Source: a virus
Length of the DNA: 10,574 bases
Virus genome (UHGV): UHGV-0338520
Direction: 5' to 3' (one strand)
The notes beneath the pieces were generated by a model. That model had not been told where the DNA came from and did not search any database. It saw only the letters and a program-made list of their open reading frames with translations. The position numbers and the translations under genes are program-made. This document shows, piece by piece, positions 2,189 through 10,574 of this stretch (positions within the stretch are counted from its first letter, which is position 1; each line of letters opens with the position of its first letter).

Positions 2189-2548
2189 ATGCTCATAGAT
2201 TTGGTTTTACCTTACCCGCCGACGGTGAACACTTACTGGCGACGCCGTGGCAGCACATATTTTATCTCGGAGGAGGGAAAGCGTTATCGCCGGGCTGTGG
2301 CGCTTATTGTTCGCCAGCAGCGGCTGAAATTAAGCCTGTCCGGAAGGCTGGCGATAAAGGTGATTGCAGAGCCACCGGATAAGCGTCGTCGCGACCTGGA
2401 CAATATCCTGAAAGCACCGCTGGATGCGCTGACGCATGCGGGAGTGCTCATTGATGACGAGCAGTTTGATGAAATCAATATTGTACGTGGTCAGCCAGTA
2501 TCTGGTGGACGGCTGGGTGTGAAGATTTACAAAATTGAGAGTGAGTGA
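2189..2548 (+). CDS. rusA: RusA-family Holliday junction resolvase
   Basis: 119 aa with AAGAGG RBS. Contains RRRDLDNILKAPLDALTHAGVLIDDEQ, matching the RusA catalytic core (RRRDLDN...DD) as recalled. Usual location in lambdoid nin regions upstream of Q. Confidence 0.85.
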   Translation: MLIDLVLPYPPTVNTYWRRRGSTYFISEEGKRYRRAVALIVRQQRLKLSLSGRLAIKVIAEPPDKRRRDLDNILKAPLDALTHAGVLIDDEQFDEINIVRGQPVSGGRLGVKIYKIESE

Positions 2549-2556
2549 GCGTAAAT

Positions 2557-3108
2557 ATGATATATCCGGAAATTACAGGCAAAAGCGGCGAACATTTACG
2601 CCTGAACACGCTGGAAGCAGTCTGGATCCAGGGGAAATTACGGATGTGGGGGCGGTGGTCGTATATCGGTGGGGGTAAATCCGGAAATATGTTTAACCGG
2701 TTACTGGTTTCGAAAAAGCTGACGAAAACAGCAGTTAATGAGGTTTTACGCAGAATGAAGAAATCCGGGCTGGAAAAACCGGAACTTGAGGCATTTTTTC
2801 GGGATATGACAAGAGGAAAGCAGAAGAGCTGGTTGTCACATTGTACAGACACAGAGGCGTTGATTATTGATCGCGTTATCAGTGAGGTGCTTGGGGAATA
2901 TCCCGGGCTAATCAATGTTCTCCGGCAAAGGTACGAAGGACGGGGAATGAGCAAACTGAAAATGGCCGAAAGGTTAAATGCAGATCATCCTGATTGGTCG
3001 TTGGTTACGTGCAGACGCCGAATTGATCAATGGTTGGGGGTATCTGAATTTATGTTATATGCCCCCATGCGCATGGCTTTTGTTACAGAGAAAAATGTTG
3101 CAAACTGA
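2557..3108 (+). CDS. Putative late-gene antiterminator (Q-like)
   Basis: ATG 2557, with an alternative in-frame GTG at 2545 overlapping the rusA stop. Lies directly downstream of rusA and upstream of a strong terminator, the canonical Q position. Contains a W-G-x-W segment (KLRMWGRWSYIGG...LLVSK) reminiscent of the RWGAW...LITSK segment recalled for Stx-phage Q. Family assignment unverified. Confidence 0.5.
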   Translation: MIYPEITGKSGEHLRLNTLEAVWIQGKLRMWGRWSYIGGGKSGNMFNRLLVSKKLTKTAVNEVLRRMKKSGLEKPELEAFFRDMTRGKQKSWLSHCTDTEALIIDRVISEVLGEYPGLINVLRQRYEGRGMSKLKMAERLNADHPDWSLVTCRRRIDQWLGVSEFMLYAPMRMAFVTEKNVAN

Positions 3109-3186: not shown

Positions 3187-3209
3187 AGCCACCGGAAGGT
3201 GGTTTTTTT
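3187..3209 (+). terminator. Rho-independent terminator downstream of the Q-like gene (tR'-like candidate)
   Basis: Stem ccacc (3189-3193), GGAA tetraloop, stem ggtgg (3198-3202), then seven T (3203-3209). Confidence 0.6.
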
Positions 3210-3332
3210 GTGTCCGCGATATACAGTAGCGCAATAAATTCGCTGGTGGTTATTAATACCGTTCTTTCAGCTTGCTGGCTTTTTCTACAAGAGTTATTGG
3301 TGTGTCACGTTAACCGAAAAAGGGAAAAAGAC

Positions 3333-3530
3333 ATGCTAAAACAGCAGGATATGACAGAAACCGCCAGAGTGGTGTTTAATGAATTAAGCGTTACCGAACC
3401 GGCGACAGTCGGGGAGATAGCGCAGAATACTTACCTTTCACGCGAACGCTGCCAGTTAATACTGACCCAGCTGGTTATGGCGGGTCTGGCAGACTATCAG
3501 TTCGGTTGTTACAGACGCCTTCCGCAGTGA
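3333..3530 (+). CDS. Small hypothetical protein (65 aa), possibly winged-helix DNA-binding
   Basis: ATG 3333 preceded by AGGGA with 7-nt spacing. The longer ORF-track start at 3210 has no RBS and begins inside the terminator. Sequence composition is suggestive of a small wHTH fold; this is inference only. Confidence 0.45.
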   Translation: MLKQQDMTETARVVFNELSVTEPATVGEIAQNTYLSRERCQLILTQLVMAGLADYQFGCYRRLPQ

Positions 3531-3557
3531 AGGCTTTTTTATTTGTGGTAAATGGGC

Positions 3558-3680: not shown

Positions 3681-4730
3681 ATGCTTAATACTGTAAAAAT
3701 ATCCAGTTGTGAGTTAATCAACGCCGACTGCCTGGAATTTATCCGGTCGTTACCCGAAAATTCTGTTGACCTGATAGTCACGGACCCGCCGTACTTTAAA
3801 GTGAAGCCTGAGGGCTGGGATAACCAGTGGAAGGGCGACGATGATTACCTGAAGTGGCTGGACCAGTGTCTGGCGCAGTTCTGGCGGGTGCTGAAACCTG
3901 CCGGAAGTCTTTACCTGTTCTGTGGTCATCGCCTGGCATCTGATATCGAAATCATGATGCGTGAACGCTTCAGTGTGCTGAACCATATTATCTGGGCGAA
4001 GCCGTCCGGATGCTGGAACGGATGCAACAAGGAAAGCCTGCGGGCGTATTTCCCCGCCACAGAGCGCATTCTGTTCGCGGAACATTATCAGGGGCCGTAT
4101 CGTCCGAAAGATGCCGGGTATGAGGCGAAGGGCAGGGCACTGAAACAGCATGTGATGGCCCCGCTGATTTCTTACTTTCGTGATGCGCGCGCGGCCCTGG
4201 GGATAACGGCAAAACAGATTGCAGATGCCACAGGAAAGAAAAACATGGTGTCGCACTGGTTCAGTGCCAGTCAGTGGCAGCTACCGAACGAAAGCGATTA
4301 TCTGAAATTACAGTCGCTGTTTGCCCGGGTGGCAGAAGAGAAACATCAGCGGGGAGAACTGGAAAAGTCCCATTACCAACTGGTCAGCACATACAGTGAG
4401 CTGAACCGGCAGTATACGGAACTGCAGAGTGAATATAAGCATCTGCGGCGGTATTTTGGCGTGACGGCGCAGGTGCCGTACACGGATGTGTGGACGCATA
4501 AACCGGTGCAGTACTATCCAGGGAAACATCCGTGCGAAAAACCGGCAGAAATGCTGCAGCAGATAATCAGCGCAAGTAGTCGTCCTGGTGATCTGGTTGC
4601 GGATTTTTTCATGGGGTCGGGTTCAACGGTAAAAGCGGCGATGGCACTGGGGCGTCGTGCGATTGGTGTTGAGCTGGAGACCGGACGTTTTGAGCAGACA
4701 GTCAGGGAAGTTCAGGATTTAATCGTTTGA
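3681..4730 (+). CDS. DNA methyltransferase, beta-class amino-methyltransferase (N6-adenine or N4-cytosine); orphan
   Basis: 349 aa. Motif IV DPPY near the N-terminus (IVTDPPYFKV) and motif I FxGxG near the C-terminus (FFMGSGSTVKAAMALGRRAIGVE), the beta-class order. No adjacent endonuclease-like ORF. Confidence 0.88.
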   Translation: MLNTVKISSCELINADCLEFIRSLPENSVDLIVTDPPYFKVKPEGWDNQWKGDDDYLKWLDQCLAQFWRVLKPAGSLYLFCGHRLASDIEIMMRERFSVLNHIIWAKPSGCWNGCNKESLRAYFPATERILFAEHYQGPYRPKDAGYEAKGRALKQHVMAPLISYFRDARAALGITAKQIADATGKKNMVSHWFSASQWQLPNESDYLKLQSLFARVAEEKHQRGELEKSHYQLVSTYSELNRQYTELQSEYKHLRRYFGVTAQVPYTDVWTHKPVQYYPGKHPCEKPAEMLQQIISASSRPGDLVADFFMGSGSTVKAAMALGRRAIGVELETGRFEQTVREVQDLIV

Positions 4731-4779
4731 AACGGATGAGATTGCAGAATTAATTACGCACCATTATTATTCTGCTCCC

Positions 4780-4855
4780 GGCCCTTTAGCTCAGTGGTGA
4801 GAGCGAGCGACTCATAATCGCCAGGTCGCTGGTTCAAATCCAGCAAGGGCCACCA
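4780..4855 (+). tRNA. tRNA with anticodon CAT; ileX/ileZ-like tRNA-Ile2 (lysidine) by similarity, formally Met by anticodon
   Basis: Cloverleaf read by eye: acceptor ggccctt/aagggcc, D-stem gctc/gagc, anticodon loop ctCATaa (CAT at 4813-4815), T-arm gctgg-ttcaaat-ccagc, discriminator A and encoded CCA. Closely resembles E. coli ileX as recalled. Confidence 0.85.
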
Positions 4856-4957
4856 TCACAAACCGCCATTAGCTTATCAGGAAGAGCAGACGACACGATA
4901 ACAGGGTTGTTGGTGCGGGGGGGCTGGTCCCCGATGGCGGTCCATTATCGGTATTCA

Positions 4958-5034
4958 GCGTTGTTAGCTCAGCCGGACAGAGCAATTGCCTTCTAAGCAA
5001 TCGGTCACTGGTTCGAATCCAGTACAACGCGCCA
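4958..5034 (+). tRNA. tRNA-Arg (anticodon TCT, reads AGA/AGG)
   Basis: Acceptor gcgttgt/acaacgc, D-stem gctc/gagc, anticodon stem attgc/gcaat with loop ctTCTaa, T-arm cactg-gttcgaatc-cagt, discriminator G and encoded CCA. Confidence 0.88.
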
Positions 5035-5171
5035 TATTCATCCTTCCAGATTCCTTCCGGCAGAGCCTTATACTGGAATATACCTGGCTCAGGATATTGT
5101 TGAAAATATTATATGTTTGTCAAAAATAAAAGTTCTGTTAAGTATTGATTGAGTGTTTGTTATACGGTCTA

Positions 5172-5498
5172 ATGGTTTTTTCAGTATTAAATATTTATCA
5201 TTCATATGGTGTGGGTAGAGTGAATATTGATGGGGCGTCGGGGTGTTTCATCCTTAGGCAGCGTATTGATATAGTCAATGCAGCACGAGCAAAGGCCTTC
5301 AGCCGTTTTACAGTTTTGTTCTGTACTCCTGATCGTCTTTCGGGAAGAGACGTTATTATTCTGAATAGTGATGCTATACAGAGGGTTTGCGATGAGTTCA
5401 TGGTTGCTAATTCAGAATTATTTGCTCTTGTTCAGGAGTACAACAGAATAGCCAGGACCTGTGGTATGGATGAACTTCGGATTACTCATCTGGGGTAG
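5172..5498 (+). CDS. Hypothetical cargo protein (about 108 aa; start uncertain, alternatives TTG 5145 or GTG 5220)
   Basis: Longest ORF in an AT-rich island. Protein-like composition, no recognisable family and no strong RBS. Nine of 108 codons are ATA/AGA/AGG. Confidence 0.45.
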   Translation: MVFSVLNIYHSYGVGRVNIDGASGCFILRQRIDIVNAARAKAFSRFTVLFCTPDRLSGRDVIILNSDAIQRVCDEFMVANSELFALVQEYNRIARTCGMDELRITHLG

Positions 5499-5889
5499 AT
5501 ACATATCTGGATTATCACCTGTTACGGTAAAAAGTGATAGCTTACTGTTTTTGTGAATGGCATTGCAGCAGCCGGATAATGTCAGTGCTGGCTGACGGTG
5601 TGCTGGTGGCGGGTGTGGTGGTTGTTGCTTTCCCGTTGCTGAAAAAGAAAACGCCAGACTGTTAGCCGGGTATCAGTTAGCGGGAGAAATTTTTAAATAC
5701 TTCACAATTCAGGCGGTTGACTGTTGTCTGGTTTGCGGGGAGTTTGTTAAAAGAAACTGGCATGGTGAATCCCCCTGTGCGGAGGGGCAATCAGCGAGTA
5801 GGTATATGGGATAATCGCGGATTCAGGTGCTGGTACTGAATTCACCGGGAGGCACCCGGCACCATGCAATGGCACATAGCGCCACTCTC

Positions 5890-5918
5890 CAGCCCCTCTC
5901 CGGAGGGGCTGTTTATAT
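5890..5918 (+). terminator. Rho-independent terminator inside the cargo island
   Basis: Perfect 9-bp stem cagcccctc (5890-5898), loop tccg, gaggggctg (5903-5911), followed by tttatattgatttt. Confidence 0.6.
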
Positions 5919-5945
5919 TGATTTTGTCAGATGTGAGTAAACTCC

Positions 5946-6281
5946 TTATGGACTTTGTTGTTTTAGCCCATAAGGACATATTTGCAGAGTGCAACGGTTA
6001 TTAAAGCATTCATTCAATACGTTATCTGTATTTGTAGGGCATTCCTGGCTGTTTTTGATTAAATTCCAGAATGTTTTATTGAATGGTACTACGTTGTAAA
6101 TGGTTACAGGTAGCACTTTGTTATTGAGCATGATACCTGTGTGAGTCAGTGTAAATATACTTTCAGGAGGTAAGAAAGCATCCGATTGATACCAGATTAT
6201 TAATTTTATTTTACTCCATATGACTGAAAAAGATATTCCGCATGATGGCTGGATAACTGTATCAATCACAATCCACTTCAT
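5946..6281 (-). CDS. Hypothetical cargo protein (111 aa) on the opposite strand to the late operon
   Basis: Minus-strand ORF with AAGGAA Shine-Dalgarno about 7 nt upstream of its ATG. Six ATA codons, five Cys, no recognisable family. It is one of only two supported minus-strand genes in the window. Confidence 0.55.
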
Positions 6282-6541: not shown

Positions 6542-6730
6542 ATGGCATTTAAACACTATGATGTTGTCAGGGCGGCGTCGCCGTCAGATCTTGCGGAAAA
6601 GCTGACACATAAACTGAAAGAGGGCTGGCAGCCGTTTGGTAGTCCGGTGGCCATAACCCCTTATACCCTGATGCAGGCGATTGCAGCAGAAGGTGATGTG
6701 GTGGTCAGTGGTGCAACTGAGCCGGAGTGA
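6542..6730 (+). CDS. Small conserved-looking phage protein upstream of the holin (62 aa from ATG 6542)
   Basis: ORF-track ORF 6527-6730; the second ATG at 6542 has a GGTGGAAAG RBS-like sequence upstream. Sequence MAFKHYDVVRAASPSDLAEKLTHKLKEGWQPFG... is protein-like; family not confidently recalled. Confidence 0.5.
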   Translation: MAFKHYDVVRAASPSDLAEKLTHKLKEGWQPFGSPVAITPYTLMQAIAAEGDVVVSGATEPE

Positions 6731-6974
6731 TACTACGTCATCGTACTGGCCCGGCATTCCAGGCCATAAAAGACGGTCTGGCAGTGGGACTAAATGCACT
6801 GACGCTGACGGATATTACCAAAAATGCAACGTATGGCGTTGAGATAGAAAGTCTGGTGCTGGAGATAAATGCACCGGCATCATCATAAAAAGTGAGCCAG
6901 TCAAATGGAAGGTATCGTTAAACTCACCGGTAGTGTCAGTGGGTCGTCTGAGACGCCTGCATGAGTTATCAGAG

Positions 6975-7037: not shown

Positions 7038-7253
7038 ATGTACCAGATGGAAAAAATCACAACAGGTGTGTCATACACCACGTCAGCGGTGGGAACGGGC
7101 TACTGGTTCCTGCAGTTGCTGGACAGGGTTTCCCCGTCTCAGTGGGCGGCAATAGGCGTGCTGGGGAGTCTGCTGTTTGGGCTGCTGACATATCTGACTA
7201 ACCTGTATTTCAAAATCAAAGAGGACCGGCGTAAGGCGGCGCGGGGAGAGTAA
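7038..7253 (+). CDS. Class II pinholin, phage 21 S-like, with dual start (Met1 antiholin, Met4 holin)
   Basis: Translation [71 protein letters not shown] (71 aa) closely matches S21 as recalled (...[25 protein letters not shown]...[20 protein letters not shown]). GGAG RBS. The ORF-track start at 6933 is an upstream extension. Confidence 0.9.
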
Positions 7254-7257
7254 AGTG

Positions 7258-8148
7258 ATGAATAAAAAATATGAACTGGTTGTTAAGGGGATAAATAATT
7301 ACGGGGATAAGGTTACTGTTACTGTGAAGCCGGAAGGTGACGGGCAAGCGTCGCTGTTGTTGCCAGATGTGGCGATTAGTCTTGACCGTACTGAAGGTGC
7401 CACGCTGGAGTTTTACGAAGCTGAGGCGAAAAAGCAGGCGAAGCAGTTTTTCATGGATGTTGCTGCCGGGTTATGTGAAGGGGATGGTCCGTTGCCGGAA
7501 AAGCGCCCCGTAATTTTAGAGGCGCAGGATGTGTTGATAACCTACAAAGGAAAGCTACCGGGAAGAATTACTTGTTCTCTGAAGATGCCGCCGTCAACAC
7601 TGCGGTCAGAAAAAGATGATGTTGAATCACGTATTGAAAAACTGGAGAGCTACGTCGTTGAGCTGAATAAGAAATGGTCGATATTGGTGCCTTCTGGCGA
7701 TGAAAAGCAGTTTGCTGCGTTTGACGATTATTGTCGGAAAGTGATGAGCAGAAATCTCGCAGAGTGTTTCAGTATTCATAATGATAATTTCAGTGACCCG
7801 GAATGGGAGTGTAACCGGCCATCCTTTGTTGTATCCGGTGATGCTGGGAAAATAACCATCTCAGAAAATGGGAAAGTAACACCTCCATCGCACCAGCACA
7901 GTGAGGAGCTCATTGAATTTGCCATTGATTACCTGAAGAACAATAAAAAGCAGGGGCTGATGAAGCGCGTTGGCCGTTGCATGGGATATCTGCAGGTAGC
8001 TGCTGAGATTGAAGCGCTGGCCAGTGGTGCTGATAAGGATGCAATTGTGCGGGAGGCTCTTCTTCGTGATTTTAATACTCCACCCTTTAAAAAAGTGCCG
8101 GCTTACTGGCTTCATCCGGGGCTGACTTATCTTAAAGTGCGTATTTAG
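7258..8148 (+). CDS. Hypothetical soluble protein (296 aa) inserted between pinholin and endolysin
   Basis: GGGAGAG RBS 7 nt upstream of ATG 7258; start lies 4 nt after the holin stop. No transmembrane segments or catalytic motifs recognisable by eye. Confidence 0.75.
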   Translation: MNKKYELVVKGINNYGDKVTVTVKPEGDGQASLLLPDVAISLDRTEGATLEFYEAEAKKQAKQFFMDVAAGLCEGDGPLPEKRPVILEAQDVLITYKGKLPGRITCSLKMPPSTLRSEKDDVESRIEKLESYVVELNKKWSILVPSGDEKQFAAFDDYCRKVMSRNLAECFSIHNDNFSDPEWECNRPSFVVSGDAGKITISENGKVTPPSHQHSEELIEFAIDYLKNNKKQGLMKRVGRCMGYLQVAAEIEALASGADKDAIVREALLRDFNTPPFKKVPAYWLHPGLTYLKVRI

Positions 8149-10367: not shown

Positions 10368-10457
10368 TTAATACGATACCTGCGTCATAATTGATTGTTC
10401 GCTGCATAGCGGTCCGACCCCGTACTGCTCACGCAGCTTATCCAGCAGTGGCATCAT
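10368..10457 (-). pseudogene. Truncated IS3-family OrfB (first about 20 codons, then unrelated sequence and a stop)
   Basis: The -1 frame relative to OrfA gives [20 protein letters not shown] then QSIMTQVSY*. An intact OrfB would be about 290 aa. Confidence 0.5.
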
Positions 10458-10574
10458 TTTTTCCAGAGGCGGTCGAACTCCGCCTTCGCAAAATAAGCGG
10501 AAGCCTGGCGAAGGATATCGTTACTGCGGCGCAGTTCACGATTTTCACGTTCCAGCTCTTTCAGACGCTGACGT
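10395..10574 (-). mobile_element. Truncated IS3-family insertion sequence (IS629/IS1203-like from memory); continues beyond the window end
   Basis: Minus-strand translation ...[39 protein letters not shown] is a typical IS3-family OrfA leucine-zipper C-terminus. An overlapping -1 frame starts [20 protein letters not shown] (OrfB start) but hits a stop after 29 codons, so similarity appears to end near 10395-10398. Confidence 0.6.
10454..10574 (-). CDS. IS3-family transposase OrfA, C-terminal 39 codons (partial; start lies beyond the window)
   Basis: Open minus-strand frame from the window edge to the stop at plus 10454-10456, with an A6 slippery-like run immediately before the stop and the overlapping OrfB ATG. 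Confidence 0.6.

Follow-up and report, generated by a model that had tools for sequence, protein, structure and literature searches.

In Shiga toxin (Stx)-converting lambdoid phages such as 933W and Sakai, an ileZ-argN-argO cluster of tRNA genes reportedly lies next to and upstream of stx, as Plunkett et al. are said to have described in 1999 for 933W, and the same genome paper is said to be the origin of the idea that the cluster aids translation of the rare-codon-rich toxin genes. The cluster is also seen in phages Lahn2 and Nil3 and in the Stx2a phage EH2201; in the Stx2a phage the order is Q, a 65-codon open reading frame (ORF), a methylase gene, ileZ-argN-argO, stx2A, stx2B and iraM on the minus strand. 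A related locus is found in virus genome UHGV-0338520, of which a stretch of 10,574 nucleotides (nt) was analysed and is called the window here, in its full length. Between positions 4,780 and 6,281, the window carries the tRNA genes ileZ and argO, followed by small cargo genes that include ORF 5172-5498 (conserved core 5220-5498), a DUF3927 gene and, on the minus strand, an iraM homologue.

Phage tRNAs offset codon-usage differences between phage and host according to Bailly-Bechet, Vergassola and Rocha (2007), as that work is cited in PMC7946995. Lambdoid phages with tRNAs have been found neither better nor worse codon-adapted than tRNA-less ones (PMC4631060). In addition, many lambdoid phages have tRNA genes directly downstream of Q, and in P22-like and SfI-like phages Asn and Thr tRNA genes follow Q, the codon match being convincing for one of the two (PMC3636060). 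Literature searches on ileZ, argN and argO found nothing relevant.

A first-pass annotation of the window had claimed that the two tRNAs decode exactly the rare codons enriched in the adjacent cargo genes. The analysis presented here makes it probable, instead, that they form a conserved ileZ-(decayed argN)-argO module that supports decoding in an AT-rich prophage generally and is not tuned to the cargo. Such a module, at the head of the late operon and the left edge of a variable moron slot (which holds stx2AB in Stx2 phages), would add gene copies for the two scarcest decoders of E. coli, tRNA-Ile2 (AUA) and tRNA-Arg(UCU) (AGA/AGG). The cargo would be AT-rich mobile DNA that lacks avoidance of these codons, and the tRNAs would be of general help in translating prophage genes and whatever AT-rich moron enters the slot. 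They would be expressed from a Q-antiterminated late transcript, from a promoter-like element at 4742-4770, or from both, and the extra tRNA would presumably raise translation.

Rare codons in the cargo and in the prophage

The isotypes given by the first-pass annotation, Ile2 (CAU) and Arg-UCU, are confirmed: ARAGORN places the tRNAs at 4780-4855 and 4958-5034, and Rfam and PGAP agree. Its codon counts for two cargo ORFs were also exact on recount. ORF 5172-5498 has three ATA, three AGA and three AGG in 108 codons, while the IraM ORF has six ATA in 111 codons, no AGA or AGG and one Arg codon in all; the Arg tRNA therefore has no bearing on IraM.

Codon usage was compared in strain 09-02E, which carries an identical tRNA-cargo region. 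Host core genes (13,587 codons) use ATA, AGA and AGG at 2.3, 0.9 and 0.7 per 1000 codons, and the cargo indeed stands far above them, as had been stated. The whole annotated prophage (12,338 codons), however, uses these codons at 9.2, 7.2 and 4.4 per 1000, which is 4-8 times the frequency in host core genes, and its richest part, the early region, reaches 12.8, 11.7 and 6.2 per 1000. In the annotated prophage genes there are 113 ATA, 89 AGA and 54 AGG codons (256 altogether), and the two cargo ORFs hold nine ATA and six AGA or AGG (AGR), 15 in all; about 94% of the ATA, AGA and AGG codons of the prophage are thus outside the cargo. One example of a prophage product whose gene is rich in ATA and AGR is a helix-turn-helix protein, encoded at 16959-18062 of its locus.

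Compared crudely with the rest of the prophage, the cargo ORFs are enriched in ATA (9/219 vs 105/12,184; odds ratio (OR) 4.9; P = 2e-4), and ORF 5172-5498, alone of the two, is enriched in AGR (OR 5.0; P = 0.002). In this crude form, the outcome by which the first-pass annotation would have been refuted, cargo ORFs no richer than other prophage genes, did not arise. This enrichment is gone once base composition is matched. The G+C content at third codon positions (GC3) of the cargo ORFs is 0.34-0.35, and against prophage genes with GC3 < 0.40 the differences in ATA per Ile codon (0.39 vs 0.29) and AGR per Arg codon (0.50 vs 0.35) were not significant (both P = 0.25). A logistic regression on GC3 predicts 0.28-0.31 ATA per Ile codon, where 3/10 and 6/13 are observed, and 0.30-0.36 AGR per Arg codon. 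Moreover, in mononucleotide shuffles of each ORF, the observed in-frame counts were reached by chance (P = 0.21-0.35). The host genes ftsZ and aceE behave differently, having none of the three codons where 5-16 of each are predicted from composition alone. The signal in the cargo is therefore the absence of the host-type avoidance of ATA, AGA and AGG, and not an enrichment beyond composition. As the cargo is AT-rich and does not avoid these codons, its rare-codon content follows base composition; its AT-rich, mobile character agrees with the original proposal.

Small ORFs elsewhere in the window are equally rich, with four ATA in the 53 codons of hyp53 and two ATA plus two AGA in the 65 codons of hyp65. 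In hyp53, which lies downstream of the DUF1737 gene, 4/5 Ile codons are ATA. Of the proposed exact match between tRNAs and cargo, then, what stands is an excess over core genes and over the prophage average, and what falls is any excess over composition-matched genes, the GC3 regression or the shuffles. The further proposal that the rare codons support the cargo ORFs as real and expressed genes fails, since such counts arise just as well in non-coding AT-rich DNA. A high rare-codon count beside a phage tRNA is no evidence for coding or expression of an ORF, and comparisons of rare codons need correction for G+C content.

Cargo genes with and without the tRNAs

The reality of ORF 5172-5498 has to be judged on other grounds, and these favour a small gene. 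The conserved core is in the same frame and begins at GTG 5220 (residue 17). In an exhaustive profile search, full-length homologues of 30-62% identity with a conserved motif were found, among them some from outside E. coli, in Citrobacter braakii and a metagenome-assembled genome. Among 72 loci (41 distinct sequences), the 11 variable sites fall 2, 2 and 7 on the first, second and third codon positions, and neither stops nor frameshifts occur. The AlphaFold2 (AF2) model has a predicted local distance difference test score (pLDDT) of 78 and shows two long helices forming a hairpin, with residues 1-16 disordered. A fold search of this model against the PDB returned generic helical hairpins only (best E = 0.05), and Pfam, NCBIfam and PADLOC gave no match. 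Because of the distant full-length homologues, the third-position-biased polymorphisms and the confident model, ORF 5220-5498 does seem to be a real small gene of about 92 codons.

The opposite interpretation, that ORF 5172-5498 is not a gene and its rare codons reflect a non-coding AT-rich spacer downstream of the tRNAs, draws on the codon counts, which match random expectation, on frameshifted and indel variants among close homologues, and on the fact that PGAP in two complete genomes and the annotation of phage mEp460 leave the ORF unannotated. It is very improbable in view of the homologues and their shared motif, the polymorphism pattern and the predicted fold, to which a PHROG family match over the full length is added.

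Whether the cargo depends on the tRNAs can be read from loci that differ in tRNA content. The window IraM is 59% identical to K-12 IraM and 72% identical to the Stx2a-phage copy. The chromosomal iraM of K-12 has eight ATA among 18 Ile codons, and its 10-kb surroundings carry no annotated tRNA; the Stx2a-phage iraM has seven among 14. In 80 viral contigs that carry IraM, the adjacent tRNAs are CAU+UCU, CAU+UCG+UCU, CAU+UCG, CAU alone or none, and the ATA count of IraM is 5-7 in 79 of them and 11 in one copy. In eight of the 80, neither ileZ nor argO has left any trace within ~3.3 kb, yet IraM has six ATA there as well. The ATA content of IraM is shown by these counts to be independent of tRNA presence. 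The copies compared (window 5946-6281, Stx2a-phage locus 6459-6782 and K-12 locus 5680-6003, all on the minus strand; proteins 59-72% identical) have the same ATA codons at aligned positions 16, 21 and 101.

ORF 5172-5498 presents a different picture. In 79 loci with enough upstream sequence, comprising 78 close-relative viral contigs and one E. coli genome locus, ileZ at a minimum lies ahead of it, and in 75 both ileZ and argO do. The scan of viral contigs returned solely 96-99% identical copies, which are fit for polymorphism counts and do not constitute independent linkage evidence; the linkage reflects one DNA block rather than independent events. A scan of genome contigs with a five-sequence alignment of the ORF 5172 family found only three loci. 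The two distant ORF 5220 homologues with genomic context do not have these tRNAs nearby; one has three ATA, no AGA and two AGG, and the one from Citrobacter braakii, with a tRNA-Thr(UGU) gene 2.3 kb upstream, has no ATA, one AGA and no AGG.

Several observations weigh against a purely general role of the tRNAs and in favour of cargo-specific co-adaptation, in which the slot keeps the tRNAs since its morons (stx2A, or here ORF 5172 and IraM) need AUA and AGA/AGG decoding, tRNAs and cargo forming a functional pair. ORF 5172-5498 is the densest ORF of the window for the three codons (8.3 per 100 codons), and its AGR fraction of Arg codons (6/11) is nominally above a host-only regression (P = 0.02). 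In stx2A, which occupies the same slot, eight codons are AGR and 15/20 Ile codons are ATA, well above the ~0.2-0.3 ATA per Ile codon that the GC3 regression, applied to the window cargo and not to stx2A itself, gives at GC3 0.34-0.35. To these is added the 75/79 linkage. Furthermore, phages vB_EcoS-813R8 and 640R1 have lost ORF 5172 together with an intact argO and retain ileZ beside an ATA-rich, AGR-free IraM, a pattern that is suggestive and fits specific pairing, although one deletion would account for it just as well. Some occupants of the slot may truly benefit from the tRNAs, and the general-support role is itself one that we infer.

Co-adaptation of this kind is nevertheless unlikely for the present cargo. 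The linkage comes down to a single nearly identical block, the codon excess vanishes against composition-matched genes and under shuffling, and the distant ORF 5220 homologues show no pairing. IraM has no AGR codon and lies on the opposite strand, where it is not co-transcribed with the tRNAs, and K-12 iraM and the eight tRNA-less viral loci bear the same ATA load. In addition, nearly all of the rare-codon demand of the prophage is elsewhere. A cargo-specific match is unsupported when composition and comparative context are allowed for.

The tRNA genes and their setting

The module itself looks intact in two of its three genes. The window ileZ and argO each match their counterparts in phages Lahn2 and Nil3 at 100% identity. 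CAU in a CUCAUAA loop, C4-G69, C5-G68 and A73 are the determinants of tRNA-Ile2 for TilS and IleRS. Compared with K-12 ileX, ileZ is identical at 68/76 positions (89%) and has the same anticodon loop CUCAUAA, C4-G69, C5-G68 and A73; the pair 6-67 is changed compensatorily, and an A27-C43 mismatch tops the anticodon stem. The gene is on this basis assigned as tRNA-Ile2, whose C34 is presumed to be modified to lysidine, so that AUA is read. The ARAGORN label of the CAU tRNA, elongator tRNA-Met, was ruled out by the identity to ileX and by the PGAP call of tRNA-Ile. The argO gene is identical to K-12 argU at 56/77 positions, with an identical anticodon loop and A20 common to both, and is predicted to decode AGA and, via wobble, AGG. 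Variable sites make up 6.6-7.8% of the tRNAs and 34-43% of the upstream flank and argN spacer; both tRNAs look functional and appear to evolve more slowly than their flanks.

Between them, only argN has decayed. Its remnant of 102 nt keeps the acceptor stem (ccgccat/atggcgg), whereas the interior is scrambled and lengthened. Neither ARAGORN nor Rfam calls a tRNA in the spacer 4856-4957, and the fold of the remnant is no better than that of shuffles (z = -1.4). Other phages have an intact argN, as do a minority of the related viral contigs. CGG, its cognate codon, is used at 14.1 per 1000 in the prophage and 2.9 in host core genes.

Of 5426 complete E. coli genomes, 3061 carry the ileZ-argO block, which occupies 7597 places in total and up to 13 in a single genome. 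The 40-nt block directly 5' of ileZ is kept whether the upstream gene is the methylase or Q, and homology among phages with differing upstream genes begins at the -35 of the element at 4742-4770. In mEp460, 813R8 and 640R1, a terminator-like hairpin and T-run directly precede this element. A consensus promoter scan found six sites, with 6.6 expected from shuffles, and placed the 4742-4770 element below threshold; the element, which rests on conservation, is a possible promoter of the tRNA block. It has accordingly been considered whether the block is autonomous and constitutive, driven by this element rather than purely in the late phase, and boosts decoding genome-wide in the lysogen. This is a rather unlikely option. 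If true, prophage copies would supply most of the gene dosage of tRNA-Ile2 and tRNA-Arg(UCU), the lysogen would better express AT-rich acquired genes genome-wide, and the beneficiaries would include IraM-type regulators, whose ATA codons are conserved in position.

Phage tRNAs can counter defences that target tRNAs, and a role other than codon supply has to be weighed. In such a role, the tRNAs would mainly serve as decoys for the anticodon nucleases of a host or competitor or replace depleted tRNAs, or they would be perfectly conserved homology anchors at the left edge of the slot, where recombination could swap morons. The tRNAs are identical across phages with differing flanks, homology to other phages stops at the argO 3' end or breaks inside argO, and the tRNA set beside IraM differs widely, from three genes through two and one to none, all of which could fit such a role. 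It is quite unlikely, however, since the anticodons match the scarcest decoders of the host and the cognate codons are enriched 4-8 times prophage-wide, which codon supply explains directly. Furthermore, ileZ retains the ileX anticodon loop, so it gives no sign of nuclease-escape changes there, and PADLOC detected no nuclease or defence gene among the neighbours. In 813R8 and 640R1, argO breaks off directly past the anticodon loop and runs into a TciB/DUF3927 gene whose N-terminus is longer (at about 3290-3360 of the 813R8 locus, compared with window 4958-5534), which puts a rearrangement breakpoint inside the tRNA gene. Integration of an ORF 5172 module targeted to the tRNA was rejected as the cause of this truncation; it has no supporting integrase or repeat, and a simple deletion is equally likely.

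The window spans the region from nin to the lysis genes of an E. coli lambdoid prophage (Table 1). The gene order is hokD, a DUF968 gene, rusA, a DUF1133/Q-like antiterminator gene, the 65-codon ORF, the gene for an N6/N4 DNA methyltransferase, the two tRNA genes, a 1.3-kb AT-rich stretch, a DUF1737 gene, a class II holin gene, a YdfR-like gene and the genes for lysozyme and Rz. The 1.7 kb around the tRNAs and cargo are 100% identical to chromosomal prophages of several complete E. coli genomes. The methyltransferase gene is a backbone gene, found in the same place ahead of the tRNA cluster in the Stx2a-phage locus.

Two late-operon terminators, both between the Q-like gene and the methylase gene, precede the tRNAs. 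The hairpin at 3189-3209 is tR'-like and, by analogy with the tR' annotated in phage Nil3, probably has that role, in which it would end a short pR' leader RNA. As both are upstream of the tRNAs, the Q-modified late transcript should read through the tRNA genes.

Table 1. Positions of the features of the window that are discussed in the text. PGAP tRNA calls come from identical DNA in two complete genomes.
Feature	Position	Strand	Evidence or remark
Q-like antiterminator (DUF1133)	2545-3108		
tR'-like intrinsic terminator	3189-3209	+	CCACCGGAAGGTGG then T7; ~80 nt past the stop of the Q-like gene
65-codon ORF	3333-3530		
Second intrinsic terminator	3517-3540 (hairpin listed 3517-3534)	+	
N6/N4 DNA methyltransferase	3681-4730	+	Pfam PF01555, E = 5e-45
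Promoter-like element	4742-4770	+	TTGCAG-17 nt-TATTAT; ends 9 nt 5' of ileZ
ileZ, tRNA-Ile2, anticodon CAU	4780-4855	+	ARAGORN; Rfam 72.5 bits; PGAP tRNA-Ile
Decayed argN (tRNA-Arg UCG) pseudogene	4856-4957	+	Aligned to intact argN of Lahn2/Nil3
argO, tRNA-Arg, anticodon UCU	4958-5034	+	ARAGORN; Rfam 70.1 bits; PGAP tRNA-Arg
phrog_2873 small protein	5220-5498	+	PHROG E = 3e-68, full-length match; occupies stx slot
DUF3927/TciB-like small hydrophobic protein	5534-5665	+	Pfam PF13064, E = 2e-27; phrog_1470
STnc100 prophage small RNA	5731-5920	+	Rfam RF02076, 132.4 bits (gathering score 47), full model length
IraM-family anti-adaptor homologue	5946-6281	-	NCBIfam NF007393, 162 bits (cutoff 121)
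hyp53, 53-codon ORF	6727-6888	+	
Class II holin	7038-7253		
YdfR/DUF1327-family ORF	7255-8148	+	297 codons
ALIL pseudoknot	10400-10499	-	75.9 bits

Downstream of ORF 5220-5498, the slot continues with the DUF3927 gene, in which both Ile codons (2/2) are ATA and whose product aligns to the Pfam profile from position 7 onward only. It is followed by STnc100, a recognised prophage-encoded small RNA (bioRxiv 10.64898/2026.05.13.724894), which has its own terminator at 5890-5911 and is convergent with iraM. A partial minus-strand "hypothetical protein" called by PGAP at ~5750-5875 overlaps STnc100 and is probably spurious. As iraM is convergent to the transcription of the tRNAs and cargo, it needs its own promoter. 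PADLOC gave no match for DUF3927 or IraM.

Further downstream, the YdfR/DUF1327-family ORF is intact in the window and is truncated or called a pseudogene in the two closest complete genomes. The ALIL pseudoknot is a programmed-frameshift element of the IS3 family, a sign that an insertion sequence of the IS3 type lies at the right end.

Comparison with known arrangements

Both the arrangement and the probable general decoding role are already known biology. If the pairing were specific, prophages would carry translation licences tailored to single virulence or fitness genes; the evidence favours a generic module, present in over half of the complete E. coli genomes. What the window illustrates in addition is that the stx slot also hosts other small cargo, namely the phrog_2873 protein, DUF3927, the STnc100 small RNA and IraM.

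With respect to the codon-compensation model of phage tRNAs, the window prophage conforms, since the codons read by its tRNAs occur at 4-8 times their host core frequency, but the effect here is prophage-wide and not cargo-specific. The tRNA genes are at the same position, the start of the late region, as those of the P22-like and SfI-like phages, and specify other isoacceptors. In contrast to K-12 ileX/ileY and argU, ileZ and argO are prophage-borne and multi-copy in many strains.

The closest likeness is to the Stx phages, and the locus is the stx-less counterpart of the classical Stx2a-phage arrangement. The parallel with stx and ileZ-argN-argO drawn by the first-pass annotation is borne out in part: the sequences of ileZ and argO are identical and their order is the same, but argN, intact in the Stx phages, has decayed to a pseudogene, and the slot has other cargo. 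The backbone order is that of the Stx2a phage (Q, small ORF, methylase, tRNAs, slot, minus-strand iraM), and the tRNAs likewise lie downstream of Q/tR' and ahead of both the moron slot and the lysis genes. In place of stx2AB, the slot holds ORF 5220-5498, DUF3927 and STnc100. The same argument has been made for both, that the tRNAs read the ATA and AGA/AGG codons frequent in the next gene; compared with the 15/20 of stx2A, however, the ATA bias of the window cargo (3/10 and 6/13 Ile codons) is far weaker and is explained by composition.

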